Positions 17,085-33,104 of a stretch of DNA of 64,000 nt are shown here, piece after piece (position 1 is the stretch's first letter; each line of letters begins with the position of its first letter). The notes beneath the pieces were generated by a model that saw nothing but the letters and a program-made list of their open reading frames with translations, made no database searches and had not been told where the DNA came from. The position numbers were made by a program, and so were the translations under genes. The stretch is from an uncultured Poribacteria bacterium (GTDB lineage Bacteria; Poribacteria; WGA-4E; WGA-3G). The stretch is from positions 160,001 to 224,000 of the forward strand of contig CATQHZ020000001.1 of the NCBI GenBank assembly GCA_958296135.2, written 5' to 3'.

Positions 17085-19181
17085 CTATTTGCCAATCTGA
17101 TTCGCAATGAGGGTTAAATCTAAGATGTTGACGATACCGTCACCGTTCAGGTCTGGTGAAGTCTCACCGAAGCGAGAAGCGACTTGCTGCAGATCTAAGA
17201 GGTTAACGACTTCATCACCGTTGACATCTGCCAGAATGTGGATGCGATACGGCGCGATGTCCCACAGGATGAGTGTGCCGTCATAACTCGCGCTTATCAG
17301 CGTGGTGCCATCCGGTGAGAAGCCGACGGTAGTGATGGCAGCGGCGGCGGAAAACGAAAGCAGGTTCGTGTGCCCGGTAAACAAGGCGAGCTGTTTGCCG
17401 GTGGATGCTTCCCAGAGTCGGACGGTGTTGTCGTGGCTGCCGCTGGCGAGCAGTGTTCCATCGGGTGAAAAGGCTAACGTGGTGACATCCTGGGCGTGGC
17501 CGCTGGGATAGATGTCGAGCGGCTTCCCAGTCTCTACGTTCCAGAGAAGAATCGCGCCGCGATAGGTGCCGGTGGCGACGATGCCCTGGTCTGGCGAGAA
17601 CGCGATGGGTGTGGGTAATCCACCGGAGACGCTTTGGAGATTTTGAGGTGGTTCCGCTGCTTGTTCGGTATAGGTATCCCACACTTGCAATGAAACAGGC
17701 CACCCCGTCAATGCGTTCTCATGGCCCCATCCACCAGCGAGCAGGCTTCCCGCTGCTGTCCACGTTATGCCTTCAACCAGCTGTTTGTCAAAGGTAGTCT
17801 GCAGTGTGTCTGTGTACGGTGGAAAGCGCGCGTTCCATACCCGAATTGTGTCGTCCTTACTAGCACTAGCGAAGGTGGTTCCATTGGGGGAGAAAGCGAG
17901 AGCAAACACTTCCGCTGTATGTTCAGAAAGTGTTGCGCGTCGGTGTTGCGTCTGCATATCCCACAGGTGCATTGTGCCATCCCCATCTGCGCTGACGAGG
18001 AGTCTGCTATCCGGGGAAAAGGCGACAGCGGTGATGGCGCGCGTATGTCCTTCAAGCGTCGCCATCAGTTCATACGTGTGTGCATCCCACAAATAGAGGC
18101 GGCTGCGAGAACGGCTTCCATCGGCAGCGATAGTTTTTCCATCGGGAGAGATGGCAAACGTGCCGATGCCCTCAGTCCAGCCGGTGAGAGGGGTTTGGCG
18201 TTCGCCGGTGCGCAGATTCCAGAAGTGCAAGGTGCTGTCTTCTGCTGCACTGACGAGGGTTTCTCCATCAGGAGAGAAGGCTATTGCGCGGAGTTCGACT
18301 GCATGGCCGTCAAACGTTGTCTGGAGCGCACCGGTGTGCGCATGCCACAGGTGAATCTTTCCCTCCCAATTTCCACTGGCGAGTGTCGCACCGTCTGGGG
18401 AGAAGGCAATCGTCCGAATACCTATTGTACCTTCTGGCGACATGAAAGTAGATATCGGGCGGCCGGTCTTCACATTCCACAGCCGAATCATGTTTGCATG
18501 GCCTGCACCGGCTAAAGTTTTTCCATCAGGTGAAAAGGCCAACGTATAATTTCGGACCCAGTCTGTCTCAAGTGTTGCCTTCCTTTCACCTGTATATGGA
18601 TTCCACAAATGGATTGCGCCGTCCCACCACTCTCCACTAGCTAAGGTTTGCGCATCCGGTGAAAAGGCTAACGTCCAACTCCCATTCTGATGTTCGGTGA
18701 GGTGGTATTGTTGTCTACCGGTGTGGGCATCCCACACGCGAATGCCCTCAGAATCTCCGCTGGCGAGCGTTGTGCCATCAGGTGAGAACGCGAGGCTATA
18801 CAGCCATTCTTCATGTCCAAAAAGGGTGCTGCGGTGTTGTCCGGTTTTGGCATCCCAAAGCCGCACCGTCCTGTCAACACTCGCGCTGGCAAGCGTGTTG
18901 CTGTCCGGCGAAAACGCTACCTTGCGTACCCACCCGGTATGTCCTGTCAGCAAGGAGATTTCCTCATAAGTGCTTGCATCATAGAGCCAAATCCCGATGG
19001 AACTCGCAACAGCAAACTGCGTGCCATCTGGCGAAAAGGCGATGTCGGTGATAAAGCCTTTGCCGAGGCGGGCAAGCGCGCCTTCGGGCAATGCTGCCTG
19101 GGCGCGCGAAACCCAAATTGAAGCGGAGATGAGGGTGAACAGTAGGAAAGCCATCCGGTTCCTGAGAAGTGGGTATCTCAT
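17085..19181 (-). CDS. Secreted WD40 repeat protein with C-terminal dockerin-like domain
   Basis: Signal peptide, LPEGALARLGKG, about 13 WD repeats, DVNGDEVVNLLDL/DLNGDGIVNILDL. Confidence 0.9.
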   Translation of the reverse strand: MRYPLLRNRMAFLLFTLISASIWVSRAQAALPEGALARLGKGFITDIAFSPDGTQFAVASSIGIWLYDASTYEEISLLTGHTGWVRKVAFSPDSNTLASASVDRTVRLWDAKTGQHRSTLFGHEEWLYSLAFSPDGTTLASGDSEGIRVWDAHTGRQQYHLTEHQNGSWTLAFSPDAQTLASGEWWDGAIHLWNPYTGERKATLETDWVRNYTLAFSPDGKTLAGAGHANMIRLWNVKTGRPISTFMSPEGTIGIRTIAFSPDGATLASGNWEGKIHLWHAHTGALQTTFDGHAVELRAIAFSPDGETLVSAAEDSTLHFWNLRTGERQTPLTGWTEGIGTFAISPDGKTIAADGSRSRSRLYLWDAHTYELMATLEGHTRAITAVAFSPDSRLLVSADGDGTMHLWDMQTQHRRATLSEHTAEVFALAFSPNGTTFASASKDDTIRVWNARFPPYTDTLQTTFDKQLVEGITWTAAGSLLAGGWGHENALTGWPVSLQVWDTYTEQAAEPPQNLQSVSGGLPTPIAFSPDQGIVATGTYRGAILLWNVETGKPLDIYPSGHAQDVTTLAFSPDGTLLASGSHDNTVRLWEASTGKQLALFTGHTNLLSFSAAAAITTVGFSPDGTTLISASYDGTLILWDIAPYRIHILADVNGDEVVNLLDLQQVASRFGETSPDLNGDGIVNILDLTLIANQIGK

Positions 19182-19183
19182 TG

Positions 19184-20323
19184 TTATGACTCTCCGATTT
19201 GATTCGCGATGAGCATCATATCTAGAATGTTGACAATTCCATCGCCGTTCAGATCTGGCGATGGCTGTCCGATACGTGATGCCACGAACGTTAAGTCCTG
19301 AATGTTAACGCTGCCGTCGCCGGTGACATCATAACGGTTTGGCGACGTGTAATCCCACAGCAAGATGGTGTTATCCAAACTGCCGCTCGCGAAGGTGGTG
19401 CCATCGGGTGAGAAAGCGAGGGAGGTGACAGAAGCCGTGTGTCCGTAAAGCGTGCTGCGGTGTGTGCCAGTATAGAGATTCCATAGCCGAATTGTTTCGT
19501 CTCGACTCCCGCTAACGATTGTCATGCCATCAGGCGAAAAGGCGACTGCATAGACACCCCCGGTATGCCCTGCCAGAAGAGCGAGAACTTCGCCTGTGCT
19601 GACATCTGACAGTCGGAGCATGCCATCCAAACTTGCACTCGCGAGGATACGGCCATCTGGCGAAAACGCGATGTCTTGAACGCTGTCCGTGTGTGCGGTG
19701 AGCGTAAGGCGCGGCCTGTCTGTCAGCATAAACGCGCCCCGCGCGTCCCACAATCGAATCGTGCCATCCCTGCTGCCGCTGGCGAGCAACGTTCCATCCG
19801 GCGAGAAGGCCAACGCGTTCGTCCAGCGCGTATAGGTTTCAAGCCTTCCGATTTGCTGCGCGATTGCTGTATCCCACAGGCGGATGTGCGTGTCTTCCCA
19901 TCCGCTGCCACTGGCAAGGGTTTTTCCGTCAGGTGAAAAAGCTACGGACAAGGTTTCTCGAAACCGCCCTTGGAACGTCGCCTTCAATTCATAGCGGTGT
20001 AGATGCCACAAACGGATTGTCCTATCCCAACTTGCGCTGGCGAGCGTTGTGCCATCGGATGAAAGGGCCAACGTGGTAATCCTGTCGGTATGTCCTTCAA
20101 GAGTGGCAATGCGTTCGCCGGTGTGTGGATTCCACAATTGGATGGTATTTTCATTTCCCGAACCACCGCCGCTGACAAGGAAGGTTCCATCAGGTGAGAA
20201 GACTGCCTTGCTTCCCACCGATATAGTCACTCCCTGAATAACGAGGCGTGGGGTTTCTGCGGCGAACCCGTTCAGTGGAAATATGATGGAAATGGAGATG
20301 AACGTCACTATAAAGTATTTCAT
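19184..20323 (-). CDS. Secreted WD40 repeat protein with C-terminal dockerin-like domain
   Basis: Signal peptide MKYFIVT.., 7 WD repeats, DVTGDGSVNIQDL/DLNGDGIVNILD. Confidence 0.9.
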   Translation of the reverse strand: MKYFIVTFISISIIFPLNGFAAETPRLVIQGVTISVGSKAVFSPDGTFLVSGGGSGNENTIQLWNPHTGERIATLEGHTDRITTLALSSDGTTLASASWDRTIRLWHLHRYELKATFQGRFRETLSVAFSPDGKTLASGSGWEDTHIRLWDTAIAQQIGRLETYTRWTNALAFSPDGTLLASGSRDGTIRLWDARGAFMLTDRPRLTLTAHTDSVQDIAFSPDGRILASASLDGMLRLSDVSTGEVLALLAGHTGGVYAVAFSPDGMTIVSGSRDETIRLWNLYTGTHRSTLYGHTASVTSLAFSPDGTTFASGSLDNTILLWDYTSPNRYDVTGDGSVNIQDLTFVASRIGQPSPDLNGDGIVNILDMMLIANQIGES

Positions 20324-20328
20324 CGTTA

Positions 20329-21294
20329 TCAATACCACGCCGCCTTATTGACGACATTTCGCAACGGCTCACCTGCCGCAAACCGACGCGCGTTCGCTAA
20401 TAAAATCTCAAACCGACGCGCCGGAACGTTCGCCGCATCTTTCACGGCAATGTGCGGCGTGAGCAACACGTTCGGTAACTGCCACAGCGGACTCTCCGCA
20501 GGCAACGGCTCTACTTCAAACACGTCTAAACCGCACCCAGCGATGTTGCCGTGCGTCAGGGCCGCCACCAACTCGGCGAGTCTCATCGTTTTGCCGCGCC
20601 CGATGTTGATGAAATAGGCAGTCCGTTTCATTAACGCGAAGCGGTTTTTGTTCCACATCCCCTCCGTTTCAGGCGTGTGCGGCGTGGTAGCTATCACAAA
20701 GTCAGCGCGCGGCAGCAGCGCATCCAATGCCGCCGGTTCGTGTTTCTCAACGAAAGGCACATCGTATTCCCACCTCGGGTCGACACCGATGACCTTCATG
20801 CCGAACGCATCGCAGCGGCGCGCTGTCTCCTGTCCAATGCCGCCGACACCGACAATCAACGCTGTCGCCTGCGCCAAATCGATGTATCCGTGTTTGCGCG
20901 CATCTTTGTCCCAGATTCCTTCGCGCTGTGCATCCATATAGTAGGGTAAGCCGCGAGCGAGCGCGAGCACAAACATCATGATGTGCTGCGCGATATGGTC
21001 ATTGTAGATACCGCGCGGGTTACAGACTACCACGGGGTGTTCAATCAACGCCGGGTAATAGTAGCCGGGGAAGGGACCTGCGGCGGGATTTTGTAACCAG
21101 CGCAGATTGCCCGCTAACGGCAGTTGTTCCGGCGATACCCAGCCGTAGACAGCATCTGCATCGGGGAGATGCTGCCGGACCTCTTCGGCTGTTGTCGGTA
21201 AGACGATGTCGTAAGTTGGCAATTCGGTTTGAATGCGGTGTGCCCAATCCTGCGATTCGGCATTTTGGGGCGGCATCATGATTAATTTTGGCAT
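20329..21294 (-). CDS. D-2-hydroxyacid dehydrogenase
   Basis: GVGGIG, INIGRG, GLDVFEVEPLP, LTPHIA. Confidence 0.92.
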   Translation of the reverse strand: MPKLIMMPPQNAESQDWAHRIQTELPTYDIVLPTTAEEVRQHLPDADAVYGWVSPEQLPLAGNLRWLQNPAAGPFPGYYYPALIEHPVVVCNPRGIYNDHIAQHIMMFVLALARGLPYYMDAQREGIWDKDARKHGYIDLAQATALIVGVGGIGQETARRCDAFGMKVIGVDPRWEYDVPFVEKHEPAALDALLPRADFVIATTPHTPETEGMWNKNRFALMKRTAYFINIGRGKTMRLAELVAALTHGNIAGCGLDVFEVEPLPAESPLWQLPNVLLTPHIAVKDAANVPARRFEILLANARRFAAGEPLRNVVNKAAWY

Positions 21295-21524: not shown

Positions 21525-22712
21525 ATGATGCGAACGTTTGAGACCCGAGGGCCCGTGACTCCCGAAAAGAATTACGTTGTCCGCCGCCAGGCAGAGTTGG
21601 CGGATTTCATTTGTCGCGTGAAGGAGGGCCGCTATATTGTCATTTTCGCGCCGCGGCAGACAGGCAAAACGACTTTTTTCCGCGCGGCTCTCCAAACTCT
21701 CGCCGTGGAAGAACCTACCTACTTCCCGATCGAACTGAATTTCCAAGTGTATAAAAACGTCGCGCCGAATGCATTCTACGGCCGCGTTTACAGAAAGATT
21801 CGCCAAGAAATTGAGGGCGTTTTTCACCAGCGCGGGCAGACGCTTTCTGATACGTTGAATCAATTTTTGCGGAACGGCTCGATGCACGATCATCTTTCAC
21901 TGCTAGACTTCTTTGAACAACTCGCAGGCTTCCTAGCACCGCAGCGGGTTGTGCTCATCATTGACGAGTTTGATGGGATGCCGGCCACCGCCGTGAGCGA
22001 TTTTTTGTATGCACTCCGTGACATCTACCACTCCAAGGCGACAACTCCCTGTCCCTATAGCATCGGCATCGTTGGGGTCAAAAACATTACGCAATTGAAC
22101 TATGACCGGTCCATCTCGCCGTTCAATGTCCAAGATGAGTTTGCTTTGCCGAACTTCACGCTTGAACAGGTGCAGGAACTGCTTGGGCAATATACCGATG
22201 AAGTGGGGCAAACGTTCGATCCTGATGTTATCGCGCTACTGCACCGCCAGACAGGGGGACAACCATTTCTTGTCAATCGACTTGCGCAAATGCTCACCGA
22301 GGATATGGACATTCCGAAGGCGGAGACGATTGCGATGCCGCACTTCGCAGCGGCACATCGGCAACTTCTTGAAGAAAGGAACGTCAATATCACACACCTT
22401 ACCACCAATATCCGCAGGGATCCGCGCTTTCAACGTCGTCTGATGCAAATCACCTCCTACGATGAAAGCGTGAGTTTCAATCTGGACGACGACATCCTTA
22501 GTGAACTTGCCACCTACGGTGTCATCGCGAAAGGCACGGATGGTATGTGTGAGATAGCGAACCCGATTTATCTCTACCGCATCCTACAAACGTTCCAGCC
22601 GCTAATAAACGGGCTGGAGGAAGAATACTACTCCCAAGACACAGGCAGCGGGTATCGCGATTACCTCACGCCTGCAGGGCAGATTCGTATGGCTGGGCTC
22701 TTGGATAACTAA
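21525..22712 (+). pseudogene. AAA-like ATPase paralog truncated before the PD-(D/E)XK domain
   Basis: APRQTGKTT, LIIDEFD; stops at MAGLLDN* where paralogs continue LLDNFRDFIARAG. Confidence 0.8.
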
Positions 22713-22779
22713 GGACGGATTTCTAGGGTTTCCGCACGTGGACGAAATTTCGCGCAAATGGAATCCTCAAATTTTTAAG

Positions 22780-22809
22780 TTGACATTTTAGGGCAAAAGG
22801 TGGTATAAT
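22780..22809 (+). promoter_or_regulatory. Consensus sigma70 promoter
   Basis: TTGACA-18-TATAAT; further promoter-like elements near 22887-22915. Confidence 0.65.
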
Positions 22810-23195
22810 TTGCCAACATTTGGGCAATTAATACCGAAATCCACACTCGGAGAACCGTTATCAAGGAATCTCTCGCGAAAGAACGGTTGACTCACATTTG
22901 GGTTTTGGGTAGAATGCAATTGCTGATGACGTATCGGCGCAATTTAGCAACCGTTTTTTCTTGCGATTTTTCGCGTATTTGTGCTATGCTATCTGATACG
23001 TTATCAATTACGTGTGTTCGTGACGGCCGCGGTTAATGGGCGGCTCTCGGGCACCACCGATACGAATGAACTTGCACACAACGATGGAGGCAGTCAACTT
23101 GCAGACGAAGTCCGTAGCATGCGGTGTTGCAACTCTGGAAGAGTTTGTTCGTAGGTAGTCTATTTTCACGTAATCTGGAAGCCGTAAGGACTGAT

Positions 23196-25490
23196 ATGAC
23201 ACCTGAAGGAATAGTGGTTGAGGAAGTGGTTCGCTACTTCTCCGACCCGGGGTTCCAAAAGTTCTCGATAAAGAGAGAATATCCGATTCAGATGGGCTCT
23301 GACAACCGCAGAGCCGATGTTGTGCTGATTGATAGCGCGGATAACCTCGTCGCCGTTGCGGAATGCAAGCGGGTCGGGGGAGAAGGGCGGGGACTGGATC
23401 AGTTAAAGTCTTACCTCAGTGCAACGGATACGCGTTTCGGGATATTCGCCAATAGCACCAATCCTGCTGCTTGGGATTTTTACGAGAACTTGGGACGAAA
23501 TCAGGTTAGACCGATGACGCGCTCTGAATTTGAAAAGCGCGTTAAAAAGGATGCTAATGTGATAAATCGTGTGTTGAATTTTTTCAAGAACATGTTCCGT
23601 CCGTCCGATAAGCGAGAAGACACCGAGGAACCGACAGGCACCACACCTGATGTGACAACCGAACCGGAGTCTAACACGCCGGTGTTCCGTCCGCCCGCGA
23701 ATCCTAACAGTCCTGAAGGCATTACGGAAACTGAACCTGTTAGAAAACCTGTTGTATCTCCGCCACCAATGCCGGGGGTACCCGACACGGAAGGATACTC
23801 ACCCTTGCAAAGCGAATATAGAGACAATCCGGGTGCGCCAAGTTTGAATGGCGAGCCTTACTACAGCGAAGATAACGGTTTTTCTTGCGCAGTCGCGCTC
23901 CGTGGGATACCTGAAGGTTTACCTGCTCATATTGACCGGATTATCCGTGACGAACGATTAGCAGTGGCATATAGTCGCGAGCAACTTCAGGCAGAAATTG
24001 AGTCGTTAGAAGGCGAGAAATCCGAACTTGAGATGGAGAAGCGCGGTTATGAATCGGAAATCGCTTCTCGCGCCGAAGAACTCGCGGGAAAAAAGGAGGA
24101 GTTGGCCGGTTTGCAAGTCCAATGGCACGCGCCAGTGGGAACCGGACTAGACTCATCGCAGCCTGTTACGGGCACTTCTGGAGAATCCGCAGTTGAATTC
24201 GCTTCTCTTCCGCAAGAAGAAATACCTGATGTCCCGTTTAGACAACAGATTGAGGCAGAGGTCGAAGAGTTGATTCACGAGAAGGATCGCCTTGGTCAGC
24301 AACTCGGTCAGAAGACTGAAGAGTTGGCTCGCAAGAAAGAAGAACTTGCGGGACTTGAAGTCCAAATAGAAGCACCGACGGAGACAGAATTAAATCCGCC
24401 ATCTGTTGAAGGTGCTGCCCCCGTTCCTTCTAAACAGCAGTTCTCTGTTCTTCAGTTGATTTTTGCAAGTTTTACCACATTTGCGGTGGTTGGCCTGCTT
24501 TTTTACCTATTTATTTTTTATTCTTCGGCTGGTGATAAGGCTTTCGGTTCAGGACGCGGCTCAGTCCAGGAAAAGTTAAATGAGATCGTTAATCATGCCG
24601 CTTTCTTTCAAGCGTGGCAGGAGCCAATGAACCTGTTTGTAATTACGTTCCCTTTTATTTTTCTCGTTCTTGCTGTTGTGACTCACCTCTGTTTGGAGCA
24701 CAGAAGATGGGTTTACTTGGGAGTAGTTATCTTATCTACTCTCGCGCTTGATGCCGTAATTGCAGTCAAGATTTCGCAAAATATTCATGAAAATAAGGAG
24801 GCAAGAGGGCTGCTGCCAGAAGGAGCAGAGTGGTCCTTATTGGATATCAATATCTTTGCTGTCCTTTTGTTAGGATTTGCAGTTTCTCTATTGCTAGGTT
24901 TTGGTTTCTATTGGGTTACGGAATTGTGGAAGAGTGTGCGGCCGCACCGTAACGAATCTACGGAATTCGATTTGCGGAGGAAGGTCGAAAAGAATGAACG
25001 CGAGGTTCAATTAGCCACTTTAAGAACCCAAATGGATAACTTGCACACCAAGATTGACTCACTCAATGGGGATATCGCAGTCACTCAGCAGAAGATTGAC
25101 GAGCGTCAGGCTAAAGTTGAGGAGTTGTCAAGGCAACAGCGGGAAGCTGGAGAGAAAACTGCAAAGCTGCCTCTTAACGTTCAACTCGCTGTCTTAAAAA
25201 CTGGAATGGAGAACTTGCAAAACGAGATTAACCAGTTCAATGAGAGACGGAACACCGTTCAGCAGGAAATTCAGGACCGTCAGACTAAGATAGAGGCGTT
25301 GAAGGAGCGGCGACGCATAAAGTTAGTCGACCTTAATAAGATCGAATGGCAAGTTAGCCAATTCGTGAGCGGGTGGTGCCGCTATATTGCCCACAGTAAA
25401 ACCGAGACTGATGATGCATCGGCCAAAATCGAAAGGGTTCGGCAAGTCAAAAATGATACACTTGCCCAATATTTCGAGACTTTACGGTAG
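23196..25490 (+). CDS. HsdR_N-like PD-(D/E)XK nuclease domain + coiled coils + 4 TM helices + coiled coil
   Basis: REYPIQMG..RADVV..AECKR..DQLKSYL..GIFAN; four hydrophobic segments; heptad-rich flanks; ATG 23196 with AAGGA RBS. Confidence 0.75.
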   Translation: MTPEGIVVEEVVRYFSDPGFQKFSIKREYPIQMGSDNRRADVVLIDSADNLVAVAECKRVGGEGRGLDQLKSYLSATDTRFGIFANSTNPAAWDFYENLGRNQVRPMTRSEFEKRVKKDANVINRVLNFFKNMFRPSDKREDTEEPTGTTPDVTTEPESNTPVFRPPANPNSPEGITETEPVRKPVVSPPPMPGVPDTEGYSPLQSEYRDNPGAPSLNGEPYYSEDNGFSCAVALRGIPEGLPAHIDRIIRDERLAVAYSREQLQAEIESLEGEKSELEMEKRGYESEIASRAEELAGKKEELAGLQVQWHAPVGTGLDSSQPVTGTSGESAVEFASLPQEEIPDVPFRQQIEAEVEELIHEKDRLGQQLGQKTEELARKKEELAGLEVQIEAPTETELNPPSVEGAAPVPSKQQFSVLQLIFASFTTFAVVGLLFYLFIFYSSAGDKAFGSGRGSVQEKLNEIVNHAAFFQAWQEPMNLFVITFPFIFLVLAVVTHLCLEHRRWVYLGVVILSTLALDAVIAVKISQNIHENKEARGLLPEGAEWSLLDINIFAVLLLGFAVSLLLGFGFYWVTELWKSVRPHRNESTEFDLRRKVEKNEREVQLATLRTQMDNLHTKIDSLNGDIAVTQQKIDERQAKVEELSRQQREAGEKTAKLPLNVQLAVLKTGMENLQNEINQFNERRNTVQQEIQDRQTKIEALKERRRIKLVDLNKIEWQVSQFVSGWCRYIAHSKTETDDASAKIERVRQVKNDTLAQYFETLR

Positions 25491-25572
25491 CATCGCCGAG
25501 TCTTGAATCAGGTCTTCCCTTATGTGGTGACTGTATGACGTAAGTGGAGACAACCTAAAAAAGGAGCCATAT

Positions 25573-26481
25573 ATGGCACAAATGAAGATTTTTGGCATTG
25601 TATTCGCTGTGTTTTTCGTTTTCCTAGTCGGTTGCAAATCAGAGTCGTCTGAAGCCGTCGGGAAGGAATCAAAATCCGCTGCGTCTAAAGCCTTAAATAT
25701 CGTTGTCATCCTTGATACATCGGATCGAATTTCAAAAGAAAAACATCCCGGCCAAGTTCAAAGAGATCTTGATATCGTGACAGGTATCGTTGATTTCTTT
25801 GAAAAACTAGTCCGTGATGAACTCGCTGAAAGCGAGAAAATCGAGTACCTGCACCGGCTGACCTTCGTGGTTCCGGAACAGCCCAGGGTCCCCCAGATTC
25901 CTTTGGACATTATGGAAAAACTGACAATTGAGGATTCAGGGAATGGACGCAGTTTCCCAGAGTTCAAAAAACAGAAGTCAGAATTGCTTCCGGCGGTCAA
26001 GAAATTATACGAATTTGTTCAGGGGCACGGGCAATTCACCGGATCCGATATTTGGGGTTGGTTTCGGTCCAAAGCGGAATTTTATTTGCAAGGTGACCAT
26101 AACTACATCATCTGTGTTTCGGATGGTTACCTTAATTTCGATCGGGACATTGAAGCGAAGCGGCGCAAAGGGACATACATGCGGGTTGGCGAACTTCGCC
26201 ACGTCGAAAATTGGCAAGACAAATTCCGCCGAGAAGGATACGGATTCTTGCCTATTAAAGAAGAAAATTTCAGCCGTTACAACGTGAAATTCTTAATGGT
26301 TGAAATCGCCCTCCGGCGCGAGCAGACTACCGGCGTTGTTTATACGCAGGACACTGATATTATCAAAGAATACTGGGGAACATGGTTGACATCAATGGGA
26401 ATTACTGATTCCCAATTCATAGAGCAACTTAATCCCGAAATCCTTCAAAAGGAGATTAAGGCGTTCATTTTGTCCCTTTAA
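25573..26481 (+). CDS. Lipoprotein with vWA-like domain
   Basis: Lipobox LVGC; LNIVVILDTSDRIS (MIDAS-like) and IICVSDGY. Confidence 0.7.
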   Translation: MAQMKIFGIVFAVFFVFLVGCKSESSEAVGKESKSAASKALNIVVILDTSDRISKEKHPGQVQRDLDIVTGIVDFFEKLVRDELAESEKIEYLHRLTFVVPEQPRVPQIPLDIMEKLTIEDSGNGRSFPEFKKQKSELLPAVKKLYEFVQGHGQFTGSDIWGWFRSKAEFYLQGDHNYIICVSDGYLNFDRDIEAKRRKGTYMRVGELRHVENWQDKFRREGYGFLPIKEENFSRYNVKFLMVEIALRREQTTGVVYTQDTDIIKEYWGTWLTSMGITDSQFIEQLNPEILQKEIKAFILSL

Positions 26482-26756: not shown

Positions 26757-27040
26757 ATGCTCCCGCACGTGACGCACGGCAGCACCGCACAAGTTGTCTC
26801 GCTGTTTGTGGTGTTGCTCGTCGCCTTAATCACCTGGGGATTCAAAAAGTGTTATTCAGAATCAAGGAGCGAGAGGAGTTGAAAGATCTCATCGCCAAAC
26901 AGGCCGCGCAAATTGCAGAACAGGCCGCGCTCATCAACGATTTGAAAGCAAGTGCTGAAAAAGTGCCTGCCTTGGAGCAGCAAATCGCCGAACTGGCTGC
27001 CCAACTGGAGCACCAGAAGGGACAGCAGTCACCGCGATAA
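26757..27040 (+). pseudogene. Small TM + coiled-coil protein, frameshifted at A5 (26844-26848)
   Basis: MLPHVTHGSTAQVVSLFVVLLVALITWGFKK joins VLFRIKEREELKDLIAKQ.. if one A is added. Confidence 0.4.
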
Positions 27041-27139
27041 GAACGGGAAGCCGGCGAGGGAATTGGGCTGGAAGCGTCCTTGCCGGCACCCCCTAGCCTC
27101 TTTTGCAAGCGTTGCGACACAAGTCAGGAGCCACGTCTC

Positions 27140-28534
27140 ATGGAAACCCCACTCCACATCGCTTTTGATAAAGGCACCCTCATCCTCCAACATGTCCCAA
27201 AGGCACTCCAGCCGCACTTAGCAGAACTCCGCTGGGACGAACGCACCCTCACCTATCGCGCCCCCGCCTATCGCTATCGGCAGATTGTCTCGCACCTGCT
27301 GGCGCACAACATTCCCTATCAGGACAACGCGAGGCAATTCACTATCGAACCGTTCGTGCTCCAAAAGACTTTACCGCCGTATCCTTACCAGACCGAGGCA
27401 ATCGACGCGTGGCACGCCAACGGCAAGCGCGGTGTGATGAGTCTCCCTACCGGTGCTGGCAAAACCTTCATCGCCGTGATGCTCATCGCCGATATGCAAC
27501 GTCCCACACTTGTGCATGTGCCCACCATCGCTCTAATGCATCAGTGGTATACTGTCCTGCGCGAGTATTTCGGCACCGAGGTGGGGCTTTACGGCGGCGG
27601 TTATCATGAATTGGCATCGCTCACCGTGACGACATATCAATCCGCTGTCATGCACGCGCCCTATTACGGCAATCGGTTCGGCCTGGCGATTTTTGACGAG
27701 TGTCATCACCTCCCCGGTCAGCAGTATCAATACGCCGCTATCAGTAGCATCGCGCCGTTTCGGCTGGGGTTAACGGCAACGCCTGAACGGACAGATGGCG
27801 GAGAAACCCGGCTGTATTCTCTCGTCGGCGAGTGTTGTTATGAGGCGAAGGTGCAGGAACTCTCCGGCAAAACGTTGTCGCCGTATCGCGTTGTCACGAT
27901 TGCGATTGAGATGGAGGACACGGAGCGGGTTCGTTATGAGGAGGCCCGTTGCACTTATCTGGATTTCCTCAAGAAGGCACACATTAATATGGGCGCGGGC
28001 CGGGGTTGGCAGACGTTCCTCTGGAAGTCTTCTCAAACGGCTGAGGGACGCGAGGCGTTTAAGGCGTATCTAACCCAGAAGCAGCTCAGTTTCGCTTCCA
28101 CTACCAAGCAGGAGTGGGTGTGGAAGTTAATCCAGCGGCACCGCGGCGACCGGATTCTCATCTTTACGCAAGATAACACCACGGCGTATCAACTCGGCGG
28201 GCGGTTTTTCCTCCCCGTCCTGACACATCAGACGAAGCTGAAGGAGCGGAACGCCTTTTTGGAGAACTTCCGCGATGGCACGTATGCTATCCTCGTCACG
28301 TCTAAAGTGCTCAATGAGGGGGTGGATGTGCCGGAGGCGAACGTGGCTATCATCGTTTCGGGGAGCGGAAGTGTGCGGGAGCATGTGCAGCGGTTAGGAC
28401 GTATCTTGCGGAAACGTGAGGGGAAACAGGCGGTACTTTACGAGTTGATTTCCAAACAAACGGGTGAACATTTTGTGAATAAACGGCGGCGGCAACATCA
28501 TGCTTACGAAAGCTCTGATTCGGTATCACATTGA
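27140..28534 (+). CDS. XPB/Rad25(Ssl2)-like superfamily 2 helicase
   Basis: PYPYQ, LPTGAGKT, DECHH, LTATPER, LNEGVDVP, VQRLGRILR. Confidence 0.9.
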   Translation: METPLHIAFDKGTLILQHVPKALQPHLAELRWDERTLTYRAPAYRYRQIVSHLLAHNIPYQDNARQFTIEPFVLQKTLPPYPYQTEAIDAWHANGKRGVMSLPTGAGKTFIAVMLIADMQRPTLVHVPTIALMHQWYTVLREYFGTEVGLYGGGYHELASLTVTTYQSAVMHAPYYGNRFGLAIFDECHHLPGQQYQYAAISSIAPFRLGLTATPERTDGGETRLYSLVGECCYEAKVQELSGKTLSPYRVVTIAIEMEDTERVRYEEARCTYLDFLKKAHINMGAGRGWQTFLWKSSQTAEGREAFKAYLTQKQLSFASTTKQEWVWKLIQRHRGDRILIFTQDNTTAYQLGGRFFLPVLTHQTKLKERNAFLENFRDGTYAILVTSKVLNEGVDVPEANVAIIVSGSGSVREHVQRLGRILRKREGKQAVLYELISKQTGEHFVNKRRRQHHAYESSDSVSH

Positions 28535-29768
28535 AAATGGGCACATCGTGCCGCAATTCGTAGAGCCCACCGATGCGGCGTTGTTGGCTATTGCAGAGCA
28601 ACTCATCGCTGTTTTCGAGAATTCGCCCGGCAAGCCGCGAACCGCGGTCTTGGAGGAAAGCAAGCAGATTATCGATGCCGCATCGGGGATAATGGTAGTC
28701 AAGCGCGGACTTGAAAAATTGTTGTTGGACCGGACGGAGTTTGACACCGCACCGAATGAAGAACTCATCGCGTTTCGGGAGAAGTTGTTTACGGAGACGA
28801 GTCGGTTGCTTGCAGGGGAACCGTTTCAGGATTACGCGGCGTATCGTCGGCGTGTGGAAGAAATAGCGCGCTTGGAAAGCGCGCCTACCGGACCGGAGGA
28901 ACTGAGCGCGAAACTTTACGCTGATCTGCCGAGTTGTCAGCCTGTCGTGGCGTTCAAAACACTTTCGCCTGAGCGGCTGCTTCATCGGTATAATTGCGCG
29001 CAGGTGCAGGGGTTGCTGCTGCATTGCAATACGTTGACATTGCGGCTTGCAGATTCGATGACAGCCGAGTTGCGGCAGCTGTTTAAGTATTTGCGGTTCA
29101 ATCAGTTGTTATCGACGATTCAGAAAGAGGCGCGCTTGGAAAGCACGCCTACCGGTGCTTTGACTGAGAATCTCTATAAGATCACCGTGGACGGACCGCT
29201 GAATCTGTTTTACAAAACGAAGCGGTATGGGATGAATCTGGCGAATTTCTTTGTCGCCGTGTTGCATCAGCAACAGTGGGAGTTGACTGCAGAGCTCCAG
29301 CTTCGGAATCAGCCGAGCTATCGGCTACGGTTAGATGATTCGTGCGGGATCAAGCCGATTTCGCAGCAGTTCCTCGCCTACATTCCGGAGGATATCCAAC
29401 TTTTTCAGACGATGCTTCACAGTAAGACAGATGATTGGCGCATTACGCCGGGTAGTCATTTCTTCCCGTTGGCGGGCGATTTCTACTGTTTTCCGGATTA
29501 CGCGCTGGTGCATAAGAGCGGGGTGGAAGTGGCGATTGAGTTGTTTCATCCGTGGCATCAGGCGCACCTCATCGCGCGGCTCAACACGCTTGCGGAACAG
29601 CCCTCTACAAAAAACCTGATTCTAGGAGTCTCTGCCGAGTTATCAAAAAAGCCGATGATTGCGGAAGCATTAGAGGCATCGGCGTATTTCTCGGCGTTGG
29701 GGTTTACGTTCCGTTCTGTCCCAACGATGGGGGCGTTGCTCCCGATTTTGGAGTCGCTGATACATTGA
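28500..29768 (+). CDS. DUF790 family (Bax1-like) endonuclease
   Basis: MLTKAL.., GLEKLLLDR, LYADLP, RYN.AQVQGLL, VDGP.NLF..TKRYG, FPDY; overlaps the XPB-like gene. Confidence 0.85.
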   Translation: MLTKALIRYHIENGHIVPQFVEPTDAALLAIAEQLIAVFENSPGKPRTAVLEESKQIIDAASGIMVVKRGLEKLLLDRTEFDTAPNEELIAFREKLFTETSRLLAGEPFQDYAAYRRRVEEIARLESAPTGPEELSAKLYADLPSCQPVVAFKTLSPERLLHRYNCAQVQGLLLHCNTLTLRLADSMTAELRQLFKYLRFNQLLSTIQKEARLESTPTGALTENLYKITVDGPLNLFYKTKRYGMNLANFFVAVLHQQQWELTAELQLRNQPSYRLRLDDSCGIKPISQQFLAYIPEDIQLFQTMLHSKTDDWRITPGSHFFPLAGDFYCFPDYALVHKSGVEVAIELFHPWHQAHLIARLNTLAEQPSTKNLILGVSAELSKKPMIAEALEASAYFSALGFTFRSVPTMGALLPILESLIH

Positions 29769-29822: not shown

Positions 29823-29866
29823 AGTTGATGAGACATCTGAACGTCGCTGGAAATGAGGTGAGAGAG

Positions 29867-31465
29867 ATGAGATGGTTTGAAACCCGAGGGCCCGTGAACC
29901 CTGAGGATAACTATGTCGTTGCCCGTCCGAAGGAGACAGCGGATTTCATCAAGCGAGTGGAGCGGGGGCGTTATATCGTGCTCTTTGCGCCGCGGCAGAC
30001 GGGGAAGACGACGTTCTTCAAGACAGCACTTGAGCGGCTTGAAACCGCGGCAGCAGGGGCCTATTTCCCCATTCAACTCAATTTTGAGATTTACGAAGAC
30101 TATGGCCGTGCGGAGTTCTATGGCAGTCTTCGCGAACATATTTGTATGGAAATAGCGACAGTTTTTCGGCAGCGTTGCATCCCGATTGCAGAGGAGTTGG
30201 CACACTTTTTGGAGAACGCGCCGCTAACAAATTCGCTTTCACTCGGCAGTTTCTTGCGTCAACTCGGGCTGTTGCTCACCCCGCAGCGGGTTGTCCTCCT
30301 CATTGACGAATTTGATGGCATCCCGCGGGAGGAATTGCGCAATTTTCTGCATACGCTTCGTCACATCTACCTTCTGGGGCGAACGCAGCGGTGTCCCTAT
30401 AGTGTCGGCATCGTTGGCGTGAAGAGCATCACGCAGTTGAACTATGACAGGACGATTTCTCCGTTCAATATTCAGGATGAATTCCACCTGCCGAATTTCA
30501 CGTTGGCGGAGGTGCGAGAACTGCTTGGGCAGTATACAGCAGAAGTGGGTCAGGTTTTTGCGCCGGCGGTCCTCGCCACCCTTCATAGGCAGACAGGTGG
30601 GCAGCCGTTCCTTGTGAACCGGCTTGCGCAGATACTCACCGAGGAGATGGACATTCCGAAGACGGAGCCGATTACCTCGGCACACTTCGCGACCGCGCAT
30701 ACCGTGCTCCTTGAGGAAGAGAACGTCAACTTTGCGCATCTCCTCACCAATATCCACCGAGACGCTCGCTTTGGAAGCGTTCTCATGCGAATCACCTCTT
30801 ATGATAAGGGGGTGCGCTTCAGACCGGGGAACGAAGTCCTTCGCGAACTTGCAACTTATGGTGTCATCGCGAAAGGCTCAGAGGGCCTCTGTGAGATTGC
30901 GAACCCGATTTATCTTTACCGCGTGCTGCAAGAGTTACAACCACTTATTAACGGGCTGGAGGAGGCATACTATCCTCAACAATCGCGCGGGTATCATGCG
31001 TATCTTACTGCGTCCGGGGAGATTGCGATGGCGCGGTTGCTGGATAACTTCCGTGATTTCATTGCGCGTGCTGGGTTCCGCATCTTGCAAGTGCCGTCGA
31101 CGCCGCGGGAATATGTTGGGCAGTATCTGCTTTTTGCTTATCTGGACCAGTTTGTTCGGCAAGTGCGGGGTGCGATGCATCTAGAAGTGCAGACTGGGCG
31201 GGGTCGCGCGGACTTGGTGATATTCCATGAGGGTAGGAAACATATAGTGGAGACGAAGCTTTGGCAAGGTGCGTTGAGTTATGCGGCGGGCAAGGCGCAG
31301 CTAGCTGCGTATCTGACGTTAGAAGGCGTTCAGGAGGGCTACTACATCGTGTTCGATCACCGTGAGGTGCCGGTGCCGCGTTCGGAGACAGAGCAGGTGT
31401 CTGGGGTGACGATTCGGAGTTATGTCATTCCGGTGCTGCAAGAGCGGCCCTCAACAGTGGGCTGA
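29867..31465 (+). CDS. AAA-like ATPase with C-terminal PD-(D/E)XK nuclease (tandem copy 1)
   Basis: APRQTGKTT, LLIDEFD, EVQTGRGRADLVI..IVETK..QLAAYL. Confidence 0.85.
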   Translation: MRWFETRGPVNPEDNYVVARPKETADFIKRVERGRYIVLFAPRQTGKTTFFKTALERLETAAAGAYFPIQLNFEIYEDYGRAEFYGSLREHICMEIATVFRQRCIPIAEELAHFLENAPLTNSLSLGSFLRQLGLLLTPQRVVLLIDEFDGIPREELRNFLHTLRHIYLLGRTQRCPYSVGIVGVKSITQLNYDRTISPFNIQDEFHLPNFTLAEVRELLGQYTAEVGQVFAPAVLATLHRQTGGQPFLVNRLAQILTEEMDIPKTEPITSAHFATAHTVLLEEENVNFAHLLTNIHRDARFGSVLMRITSYDKGVRFRPGNEVLRELATYGVIAKGSEGLCEIANPIYLYRVLQELQPLINGLEEAYYPQQSRGYHAYLTASGEIAMARLLDNFRDFIARAGFRILQVPSTPREYVGQYLLFAYLDQFVRQVRGAMHLEVQTGRGRADLVIFHEGRKHIVETKLWQGALSYAAGKAQLAAYLTLEGVQEGYYIVFDHREVPVPRSETEQVSGVTIRSYVIPVLQERPSTVG

Positions 31466-31502: not shown

Positions 31503-33104
31503 ATGAGATGGTTTGAAACGCGAGGGCCCGTGAATCCTGAGGATAACTATGTCGTTGTCCGTCCGAAGGAGACAGCGGATTTCATCAAGCGAGTGGAGCG
31601 GGGGCGCTATATCGTGCTGTTTGCGCCGCGGCAGACAGGAAAGACGACGTTCTTCAAGACAGCACTTGAGCGGCTTGAAACCGCGGCAGCAGGTACCTAT
31701 TTTCCAATTCAACTCAATTTTGAGGGGTATAAAAATCTGGCCTGTCCTGATTTTTACGAGGGGCTCTACGAAGATATGCGCGAAGAAATAGGAGCCGTTT
31801 TTCAGCGGCGGGGAACAGTGCCGCCAGCTGCATTAACGGCCCTCTTGGAGAGCACAACACTCACGACGGCTTTCTCGATGAGAAGGTTCTTGACGCAACT
31901 GGGGAAATTGCTGGCCCCGCAGCGATTTGTCGTCATCATTGATGAGTTTGATGGGATCCCGCCAGCCGCCCTGAGCGATTTTCTGCATACGCTTCGTCAC
32001 ATCTACCTTCTGGGGCGAACGCAGCGGTGTCCCTATAGTGTCGGCATCGTTGGCGTAAAGAGCATCACGCAGTTGAACTATGACAGGACGATTTCTCCGT
32101 TCAATATTCAGGATGAATTCCACCTGCCGAATTTCACGTTGGCGGAGGTGCGAGAACTGCTTGGGCAGTATACAGCAGAAGTGGGTCAGGTTTTTGCGCC
32201 GGCGGTTCATGCCACCCTTCATAGGCAGACAGGTGGGCAGCCGTTCCTTGTGAACCGGCTTGCGCAGATACTCACCGAGGAGATGGATATCCCGAAGACG
32301 GAGCCGATTCACTTGGAACACTTTGCCGTGGCGCATCGGCACATCCTTCGGGAACGCAATGTCAACGTCCAGCATCTGACTACCAATATTCGGCGAGATC
32401 CGCGCTTTCAACAGCGGCTGATGCAAATCACGGCTTACGATGAAGGCGTAGACTTCAATCTTGATGACGATGTTCTCAGTGAACTTGCGACGTATGGTGT
32501 GATTGTAGCCGGTGAAGATGAGATGTGTGAGATTGCGAGTCCGATTTATCTTTACCGGATTTTGCGGGTGTTCCAACCGCTCATAAACGGGCTGGAGCAA
32601 GAATACTATCGGCAAGATACGGGCAATGGGTATCATGCGTATCTCACTGCGTCAGGGGAGATTGCGATGGGGAGATTGCTGGATAACTTCCGTGATTTCA
32701 TTGCGCGTGCTGGGTTCCGCATCTTGCAAGTGCCGGAGACGCCGCGGGAATATGTTGGGCAGTATCTGCTTTTTGCTTATCTAGACCAGTTTGTTCGGCA
32801 AGTGCGGGGTGCGATGCATCTAGAAGTGCAGACTGGGCGGGGTCGCGCGGACTTGGTGATATTCCATGAGGGTAGGAAACATATAGTGGAGACGAAGCTT
32901 TGGCAAGGTGCGTTGAGTTATGCGGCGGGCAAGGCGCAGCTGGCTGCGTATCTAACCTTAGAAGGCGTTCAGGAGGGCTACTACATCGTGTTCGATCACC
33001 GTGAGGTGCCGGTGCCGCGTTCGGAGACAGAGCGGGTATCTGGGGTGACGATTCGGAGTTATGTCATTCCGGTGCTGCAAGAGCGGCCCTCAACAGTGGG
33101 CTGA
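31503..33104 (+). CDS. AAA-like ATPase with C-terminal PD-(D/E)XK nuclease (tandem copy 2)
   Basis: Same motifs; N- and C-terminal DNA nearly identical to copy 1. Confidence 0.85.
   Translation: MRWFETRGPVNPEDNYVVVRPKETADFIKRVERGRYIVLFAPRQTGKTTFFKTALERLETAAAGTYFPIQLNFEGYKNLACPDFYEGLYEDMREEIGAVFQRRGTVPPAALTALLESTTLTTAFSMRRFLTQLGKLLAPQRFVVIIDEFDGIPPAALSDFLHTLRHIYLLGRTQRCPYSVGIVGVKSITQLNYDRTISPFNIQDEFHLPNFTLAEVRELLGQYTAEVGQVFAPAVHATLHRQTGGQPFLVNRLAQILTEEMDIPKTEPIHLEHFAVAHRHILRERNVNVQHLTTNIRRDPRFQQRLMQITAYDEGVDFNLDDDVLSELATYGVIVAGEDEMCEIASPIYLYRILRVFQPLINGLEQEYYRQDTGNGYHAYLTASGEIAMGRLLDNFRDFIARAGFRILQVPETPREYVGQYLLFAYLDQFVRQVRGAMHLEVQTGRGRADLVIFHEGRKHIVETKLWQGALSYAAGKAQLAAYLTLEGVQEGYYIVFDHREVPVPRSETERVSGVTIRSYVIPVLQERPSTVG

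Follow-up and report, generated by a model that had tools for sequence, protein, structure and literature searches.

The 64,000-nucleotide window analyzed here, positions 160,001 to 224,000 of contig CATQHZ020000001.1 (assembly GCA_958296135.2) from an uncultured Poribacteria bacterium, contains two adjacent genes, gene 1 and gene 2, which are predicted to encode a membrane protein with an N-terminal PD-(D/E)XK nuclease domain and an exported lipoprotein with a von Willebrand factor A (vWA) fold. Judged from sequence comparison, the pair is one copy of a widespread, unnamed module that is predicted to span the cell envelope and is patchily distributed. It is highly probable that the two genes form a real, conserved module whose nuclease is swappable. 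A first-pass annotation had interpreted the locus as a new trans-envelope system, in which an exported vWA sensor would signal through a four-transmembrane (4TM) protein to oligomerize a cytoplasmic nuclease. This interpretation is supported in part: the architecture, the conservation of the pair and the swapping of the head are upheld, with the corrections that the nuclease is not universal, that the metal ion-dependent adhesion site (MIDAS) is non-canonical, and that the promoter-like sites belong to gene 1 only.

Conservation and distribution of the gene pair

A profile built from gene 2 matches 784 cluster representatives (50% identity) at E <=1e-3 and locates 435 loci in species-representative genomes, mostly from Bacteroidota (Flavobacterium, Tenacibaculum, Capnocytophaga, Chitinophagaceae, Prevotellaceae, and Alistipes), with further loci in Ignavibacteria, Desulfuromonadales, and one Oligoflexales genome. 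Within Poribacteria, a homolog of the gene 1 core lies immediately 5' of gene 2 in every locus of three sets (6/6, 11/11, and 20/20), which overlap with one another and in which L002 and L020 probably represent one contig. Among 80 loci from Bacteroidota, Ignavibacteria, Desulfuromonadales, and Oligoflexales, 72 have an upstream open reading frame (ORF) of more than 350 residues on the same strand, and all 72 of these ORFs match a hidden Markov model of the Poribacteria core (E 7e-30 to 3e-11), while in the remaining eight loci the contig breaks off or the ORF is shorter. Two fusion proteins, P0305 (735 residues) and P0306 (724 residues), unite the parts in a single chain that runs from a coiled coil through four transmembrane (TM) segments, a second coiled coil, a GW-type motif and an extra TM segment to the gene 2 domain. 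These fusions argue that the two genes belong together, as the first-pass annotation had proposed for the 4TM and vWA proteins, and their architecture would place the vWA domain across the membrane from the C-side coiled coil.

Complex prediction is consistent with this pairing. The TM region (residues 191-386 of A5) modeled with mature gene 2 scored 0.42, 0.01, and 0.46 in three runs (median 0.42), and the best of three controls reached 0.08; the partner has a predicted local distance difference test score (pLDDT) of at least 78, and the runs agree in at least 10% of contacts. The mark used for this score is reached by 116 of 157 solved complexes and by 2 of 215 mismatched pairs, with scores of 0.60 or less accounting for only 18 of the 157 solved complexes together with both of the mismatched pairs that passed. 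The complex anticipated by the first-pass annotation thus reaches the mark, but the support that it obtains is weak.

The module also has the distribution of an accessory element. It is present in 55 of 151 sampled Poribacteria genomes, with fragments in 6 genomes, and was not found in the only other genome of the same genus as the window (G080). In the family of the Flavobacterium locus L050 (genome G151), it is present in 23 of 201 genomes, a count for which 11 candidates were scored per genome. Across the contexts of the 20 Poribacteria loci, only the module's own genes are common to all, and any other neighbor occurs in 8 or fewer. The guanine-plus-cytosine (GC) content of the window is 0.46 to 0.50 over the module (22001-26000), compared with 0.53 to 0.60 around it.

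Interchangeable heads in Poribacteria

The predicted cytoplasmic head of the Poribacteria module is swapped repeatedly between HSDR_N_2 and T5orf172. In the 20 Poribacteria loci, a separate small T5orf172/MUG113 gene precedes the core in 15, T5orf172 is fused to the core in 1, and HSDR_N_2 is fused to it in 4. L003 to L006 are T5orf172 fusions, while L002 and L007 have the split form, and among database homologs most carry PF13588 and several carry PF10544/PF13455. When 136 cores are placed on a maximum-likelihood tree, at least 5 changes across well-supported branches are needed for the T5-fused label, and all head labels together require 13 changes, compared with a mean of 37.2 when the labels are shuffled. 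The labels were set by pattern and, for the proteins named, agree with precomputed Pfam assignments. The sister proteins P0350 (T5orf172) and P0326 (HSDR_N_2) have a junction helix in common (..TRVSxFF..), and from there onward they hardly differ. The corresponding helix of the window's protein, ..NRVLNFF.. (residues 123-131), is common to the HSDR_N_2 and T5orf172 forms. The T5orf172 domains retain GIY-YIG-like positions in 14 aligned sequences. The swappable N-terminal effectors foreseen by the first-pass annotation are therefore found in Poribacteria, but the nuclease is an add-on of this one phylum, and the Bacteroidota core is without it.

Architecture of gene 1

The head of gene 1 in the window is of the HSDR_N_2 type. 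It matches PF13588 over residues 16-95 (E 1.7e-9, 38.2 bits, cut-off 25), and the AD (40-41), ECK (56-58), and QLKSY (69-73) motifs are all located where an HsdR_N-type domain had been read. D41, E56, K58, and Q69 are conserved in all 92 HSDR_N_2-fused homologs and E28 in 98% of them; because [ED]C[KQ] was the selection pattern for this set, the retention of E56 and K58 is in part built in, which does not apply to D41, E28, or Q69. The conservation of the triad across the fused homologs argues for an active nuclease. Sequence matches of the head in the PDB are weak (Card1 nuclease domain, E 0.33; HsdR 3h1t, E 0.56), and no helicase family, as the SF2 motor of a type I restriction subunit would give, is among the Pfam and NCBIfam matches of gene 1. 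The head is joined to the core by a linker (residues 131-215) in which Pro and Gly make up 28% of residues, in agreement with the Pro-rich linker described earlier.

The core itself consists of four TM segments between two coiled coils. Hydrophobic peaks are centered at residues 425-438, 485-493, 513-519, and 553-566, within the interval 418-573, and each coiled coil is built of two repeat units (294-313 and 375-394 on the N-side, which are near-identical; 604-616 and 662-674 on the C-side), so that the 4TM helices and both duplicated coiled coils of the first-pass annotation are present as claimed. In a set of 62 diverse cores, Y442, G560, and G726-W727 never vary, and position 519 in TM3 is acidic in 62/62 (D in 60, E in 2). 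Given four TM segments, a nuclease domain on the cytoplasmic side, and the EHRRW turn that connects TM2 to TM3, both ends of gene 1 are expected to be cytoplasmic. In this topology, the cytoplasm would hold the nuclease domain together with both coiled coils, and only loops of ~34 and ~20 residues and the vWA lipoprotein would face outward.

The spacing between the N-proximal motif and TM1 covaries across cores with that between TM4 and the GW motif (Pearson r 0.83 over the 118 anchorable sequences among 209, which are not phylogenetically independent). The arms fall into length classes of ~120-140 with 80-100, ~200-220 with 140-160, to which the window's protein belongs, and ~360-380 with 255, and core forms of 1,013-1,041 residues have four repeat units per side. 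Because the lengths of the N-side and C-side arms change together, the two arms would be joined as a pair in a single stalk in the cytoplasm, at whose tip the N-motif and the C-motif would meet.

No Pfam, NCBIfam, or PADLOC family covers the gene 1 core, and a PDB sequence search with the core profile returned only coiled-coil matches. The only specific family, as opposed to generic coiled-coil families, that is matched repeatedly by relatives of the core is DUF4407 (PF14362), which is matched by 7 of 62 at E <=0.1, with a best E of 4.5e-10 and with scores of 33.9 bits for P0167 and 32.5 bits for L039 against a cut-off of 31.3. The window's own gene 1 protein has no DUF4407 match at E <=0.1. 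DUF4407 is a distant relative of the gene 1 core. In the parts of the literature that were accessible, DUF4407 is mentioned only in passing.

Gene 2 as an exported vWA-fold protein

Following a K-containing start and a hydrophobic core, gene 2 has the residues L-V-G-C at positions 18-21, read by eye as a lipobox, which accords with the lipoprotein assignment made earlier. An N-terminal hydrophobic stretch is found in 150 of 152 homologs and a lipobox-like motif in only 64 of 152. The fold of the mature part is confirmed as vWA by comparison of its predicted structure with known ones. An AlphaFold2 model has a pLDDT of 86.6 and a predicted template modeling score (pTM) of 0.83, with low confidence only for residues 1-36. 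A Foldseek search with this model gave 24 matches at E <=1e-3, and all those that were read are vWA-type, with modest TM-scores of 0.3-0.5; they include collagen VI, TFIIH p34/p44, C2a, integrin beta, Sec23/24, Ku80, and a Bacteroides BatA-like protein. In a VIA-align comparison with 48,161 chains, the top 50 were vWA-fold structures only (Z 12.5-10.2, root-mean-square deviation ~3-4 Å over 164-224 residues), examples being 4fx5_A (Z 12.0), 9qh8_G NorD (Z 11.6), and 3ibs_A BatB (Z 10.8).

Sequence-based comparison was far less sensitive. An initial hhalign comparison of 44 gene 2 sequences with 10 VWA_2 domains of the window's own genome gave a probability of 1.1% and was superseded by larger alignments, in which gene 2 aligns with 17 VWA_2 domains of that genome at P 2.4e-4 over 155 columns, compared with P 0.16 and 0.37 for the Response_reg and HAD_2 controls. 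In this alignment, the DxSxR strand is paired with DxSxS and SDG with (T/S)DG. Gene 2 has no match in Pfam, the VWA families included, or in NCBIfam or PADLOC; PF00092 is matched weakly by 5 of 44 relatives (best E 0.011), PDB sequence searches with gene 2 profiles returned nothing usable, and the ESM Atlas returned unnamed Bacteroidota clusters, the nearest named one being VWA_2 at 0.81, which is a lead only.

The first-pass annotation had described gene 2 as a vWA protein with a MIDAS-like DTSDR motif. The fold holds, as set out above, but the motif (residues 48-52) is non-canonical, reading DxSxR rather than DxSxS; the Asp of (S/T)-D-G is retained as D184, and the Thr position is not clearly aligned. 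D48, S50, R52, D65, and D184 are invariant in 152/152 homologs. This D-S-R-D-D set appears to be the conserved site of gene 2, and it may or may not bind metal.

The module outside Poribacteria

Outside Poribacteria, the core is ~420 residues long and is without a nuclease domain. In Bacteroidota, the position of the cytoplasmic module is occupied by a TerB-like gene. Nuclease genes are nevertheless found nearby: 32 of 80 loci have an SNase, EEP, or HSDR_N gene at a distance of ~5 genes or less. A signal-bearing SNase directly 3' of the module accounts for 8 of 79 loci (9 loci in all), an EEP nuclease is near 16 loci (within 4 genes in 15), and a standalone HSDR_N protein is near 11. Many of these loci are from related Flavobacteriaceae and are not independent; the SNase neighbor is also seen in loci from Chitinophagaceae, Sphingobacteriales, and Oligoflexales. 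An Excalibur protein is found near 12 non-Poribacteria loci.

Comparison with known systems

Literature searches, which covered subscription journals to a limited extent, found no description of the module, and neither these nor Pfam, NCBIfam, and PADLOC contain a named system with its architecture, as the first-pass annotation had surmised. The closest parallels in overall design are two defense systems. As described in the accessible part of the source, Zorya couples a complex in the inner membrane to a partner that faces the cell wall; it has a long coiled coil in the cytoplasm, the length of which is important, and its nuclease acts on invading DNA close to the membrane (PMC11946911). The module resembles it in combining a membrane complex, an outward partner, a long coiled coil, and a nuclease. 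Ion-driven stators carry a conserved TM Asp, and the conserved acidic residue in TM3 of the module recalls this feature. The outer partner of the module is a vWA lipoprotein rather than a MotB-like peptidoglycan binder, its stalk seems to be made of the N-side and C-side arms of one chain, and its nuclease is either fused or encoded by a small adjacent gene. No PADLOC match to ZorA or ZorB was obtained at E <=0.1, and MotA_ExbB (PF01618) is not among the Pfam matches. The host genome holds only 2 MotA/ExbB genes.

To our knowledge, Kiwa has neither an exported partner nor a coiled-coil stalk, and genes 1 and 2 have no PADLOC match to KwaA or KwaB. The likeness to Kiwa lies in the logic of a membrane sensor coupled to a DNA-directed cytoplasmic part, since Kiwa is said, in the portion of the preprint available, to have a membrane-embedded sensor that responds to phage- or conjugation-induced membrane changes, with a cytoplasmic DNA-directed partner (bioRxiv 10.1101/2023.02.26.530102). 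With type I HsdR, gene 1 shares an HSDR_N_2 domain with a D...ExK triad; it differs in the absence of a helicase motor, HsdM, and HsdS and in the tethering of the nuclease domain to a membrane protein. Gene 2 has the same predicted fold as BatA/BatB, NorD, and TerY and is membrane-anchored like BatA/BatB in Bacteroidota, but it falls below all Pfam VWA cut-offs, and its MIDAS reads DxSxR. The neighbors of the module include no conserved MoxR ATPase, kinase, or phosphatase. In the TerY-P system, the TerY vWA protein is accompanied by a PP2C phosphatase and a Ser/Thr kinase, and PADLOC gives gene 2 no match to that system.

Gene starts, expression signals, and genomic surroundings

The coordinates of the module and its neighbors are collected in Table 1. 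The ORF list starts gene 1 at an earlier GTG (23124). The ATG at 23196 is likely the true start, because the close homologs share MTPEG as their N-terminus and stop codons lie upstream in the window. In the homologs P0125 and P0153, the ORF reaches 30-40 residues further 5', and it is the matching stretch of the window that has stop codons. The first-pass annotation placed both ribosome-binding sites behind consensus promoters. AAGGA does precede both genes, and promoter-like sites lie upstream of gene 1, but none was called in the 82-nucleotide gap ahead of gene 2. Because of this gap without a promoter-like site, genes 1 and 2 are probably on one transcript. The 6 promoter-like sites of the region are not above the shuffled expectation (4.4, standard deviation 2.3). 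A leader of ~385 nucleotides (22810-23195) separates the 12/12 site from the ATG of gene 1.

Table 1. Features of the module and of neighboring genes in the window
Feature	Position	Strand	Basis
AAA_35 ATPase gene, first of three paralogs	21525-22712		Pfam
Sigma-70-like promoter, 12/12 consensus positions, TG extension	22780..22809	+	Pattern match only
Second promoter-like site, 10/12	22887..22915	+	Pattern match
AAGGA ribosome-binding site of gene 1	23186..23190	+	Sequence reading
Gene 1, membrane-anchored PD-(D/E)XK protein, 764 residues	23196..25490	+	ORF, homolog alignment
N-terminal HSDR_N_2 PD-(D/E)XK domain, residues 1-130; E28, D41, E56, K58, Q69	23196..23585	+	Pfam, alignment
Pro/Gly/Thr/Glu-rich linker, residues 131-215	23586..23840	+	Composition
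N-proximal core motif ..PYYSEDNGF..A..RG..	23841..23981	+	Alignment; Gly kept in 60/62 sequences
N-side coiled coil, two repeat units (residues 294-313, 375-394)	23982..24377	+	Alignment
Four-TM region, residues 418-573	24447..24914	+	Hydrophobicity, alignment
C-side coiled coil, two repeat units (residues 604-616, 662-674)	24915..25355	+	Alignment
C-terminal motif F..GW..Y and stop codon	25356..25490	+	Alignment
AAGGA ribosome-binding site of gene 2	25561..25565	+	Sequence reading
Gene 2, exported vWA-fold (lipo)protein, 302 residues	25573..26481	+	ORF, model, structure searches
Signal peptide with lipobox L-V-G-C, residues 1-21	25573..25635	+	Sequence reading
vWA-fold domain, residues 37-302	25681..26478	+	Model, structure searches
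XPB-type helicase with XPB damage-recognition domain	27080-28534	+	Pfam, NCBIfam
Bax1/DUF790 nuclease	28500-29768	+	Pfam, NCBIfam
AAA_35 ATPase gene, second of three paralogs	29825-31465		Pfam
AAA_35 ATPase gene, third of three paralogs	31503-33104		Pfam

The module in the window is followed by genes for an XPB-type helicase and a Bax1/DUF790 nuclease, with a 63-residue ORF of coiled-coil-like, A/Q/E/L-rich composition (26849-27040) between gene 2 and the XPB gene. The XPB and Bax1/DUF790 arrangement recurs in 2 of 20 other Poribacteria loci (L035:5781-8432 and L039:9964-12751), which differ in their head, one having HSDR_N_2 and the other T5orf172. These neighbors could be the product of shared regional ancestry or a functional extension of the module. 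Of the three paralogous AAA_35 genes, the first is shorter (395 residues), and the C-terminal part of the second weakly matches Cas4-like PADLOC models (E ~0.01); long antisense ORFs overlap all three. Further upstream, on the minus strand (17085-20338), are two WD40-repeat proteins of 698 and 384 residues with signal-like N-termini and C-terminal repeats of the D-x-N-G-D-G-x-V-N type, which look dockerin-like.

Conflict-type genes occur among the Poribacteria neighbors, namely Uma2 three times, DUF559/MTES_1575 twice, a toxin-antitoxin pair, and an HSDR_N+DUF4268 protein. The Uma2 genes, labeled 'putative restriction endonuclease', are next to the module in 3 of 20 loci. A Pnkp-Hen1 RNA-repair pair lies 3 or fewer genes from the module in 3 different loci of the 20 (L022, L029, and L032), and in one Poribacteria genome the module is closely preceded by genes for a TIR_2-domain protein and an FRG-TPR protein (L003:856-3469).

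Possible function of the module

We consider the chances about even that the module is an anti-phage or anti-plasmid system that resembles Zorya or Kiwa in its working and is composed of unrelated parts. In such a system, an envelope event, for instance conjugation or the injection of DNA, would be sensed by the vWA protein and the 4TM bundle, the former by way of its conserved D-S-R-D-D site and the latter by way of its conserved acidic residue in TM3; the coiled-coil stalk would relay the event to the cytoplasm, where the tethered PD-(D/E)XK nuclease would cut DNA on the inner side of the membrane. This anti-invader reading is drawn from the constancy of the membrane pair, its patchy presence, low GC, variable context, and fragments, and the repeated exchange of two unrelated nuclease folds that retain their catalytic residues. 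A broader proposal, which we regard as possible although rather doubtful, is that the module represents a new class of envelope-spanning immune sensor in more than 400 species, with a Zorya-like strategy of independent origin that combines an ion-coupled 4TM (TM3 Asp) and vWA pair for the detection of DNA entry, a two-armed stalk of tunable length, and interchangeable DNA-targeting heads. The heads would then be PD-(D/E)XK or GIY-YIG-like inside the cell and SNase or EEP outside it.

Several observations weigh against a defensive role or against the architecture on which it is based. The nuclease is absent from the core in most lineages, and gene 1 exposes only short loops. At 0.42, the complex prediction falls where passes are often wrong, and the arm-length covariation is carried by few clades among the anchorable sequences. 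PADLOC gives no specific match, as had been expected beforehand, with gene 1 obtaining only coiled-coil matches to LmuB/JetC and gene 2 none. The module was not found in phage records, gave 1 weak match among 72,556 plasmid records, and matched 1 viral contig, at the contig's end; with these counts, a phage or plasmid origin of the module was rejected. Many of the Poribacteria neighbors are housekeeping genes (serine hydroxymethyltransferase, Mur ligase, H+-pyrophosphatase, phosphoadenosine phosphosulfate reductase, and MoaE). Outside Poribacteria, a TerB-like gene (~135 residues) is found on the same strand directly 5' of the core in 50 of 79 loci, 34 loci have a LuxR-type response regulator nearby, and 28 have a TPR histidine kinase, neighbors that suggest a regulated envelope or stress function. 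T5orf172 can also serve as a DNA binder, as described for CapR in the part of the preprint that was accessible (bioRxiv 10.1101/2021.07.12.452122).

In one alternative, the module serves envelope or ion stress by a Ter-like logic and not defense, with the 4TM protein acting as a channel or sensor, the vWA protein binding a metal or ligand, and the TerB-like, T5orf172, and HSDR_N_2 parts acting as adaptors or DNA anchors. Ter stress systems pair a vWA protein (TerY) with TerB, and the TerB-like gene directly upstream, the two-component genes near 28-34 loci, the acidic TM3 residue in 62/62 cores, and the housekeeping neighbors in Poribacteria would all fit a module of this kind. We nevertheless consider this alternative unlikely, as it leaves unexplained the repeated swaps of two nuclease folds with their catalytic residues kept, the patchy presence, and the recurrent SNase, EEP, and HSDR_N neighbors; moreover, of three TerB-like proteins tested, one scored 31.1 bits with Pfam TerB, and the other two, at 17-18 bits, were below the cut-off. 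The conservation of the TM3 Asp/Glu and other TM residues could alternatively reflect abortive infection with the roles reversed, in which the nuclease-like domain would sense foreign DNA and the 4TM bundle would depolarize the membrane. Membrane effectors are common among defense systems. The T5orf172 domain is present in the DNA-binding CapR, again in the accessible part of that source (bioRxiv 10.1101/2021.07.12.452122). This reversal of roles is distinctly unlikely, however, because the exported vWA partner would be left without a role and the PD-(D/E)XK triad is fully conserved. In known defense systems, the variable part is usually the effector, whereas here the membrane core is the constant part.

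A use of the module in handling DNA for the cell's own benefit, by uptake, scavenging of extracellular DNA, or turnover of biofilm DNA, would account for the signal-bearing SNase that adjoins the module downstream in 8 of 79 loci, the EEP genes within 4 genes in 15 loci, and the Excalibur protein in 12. Competence and transporter genes are not conserved with the module, however, the Poribacteria nuclease domains are predicted to be cytoplasmic, and the distribution is patchy and single-copy, which makes such a use very improbable. Finally, the chance that genes 1 and 2 are unrelated and only happen to be neighbors is practically negligible, as their adjacency extends across phyla to all loci with a full-size upstream ORF and the fusion proteins exist.

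Implications

Should the anti-invader reading be correct, the module would be a third unrelated design among the membrane-embedded systems at the site of DNA entry, after Zorya and Kiwa, and the first of them whose exported partner is a vWA protein. A large unnamed family (784 clusters and 435 loci), with members in the culturable Flavobacterium, Tenacibaculum, and Capnocytophaga, would thereby acquire a function. The matched arm lengths constitute a directly testable structural prediction. For the Poribacteria, which are uncultured sponge symbionts, the data presented here point to a lineage-specific expansion of the module with swapped nuclease heads.

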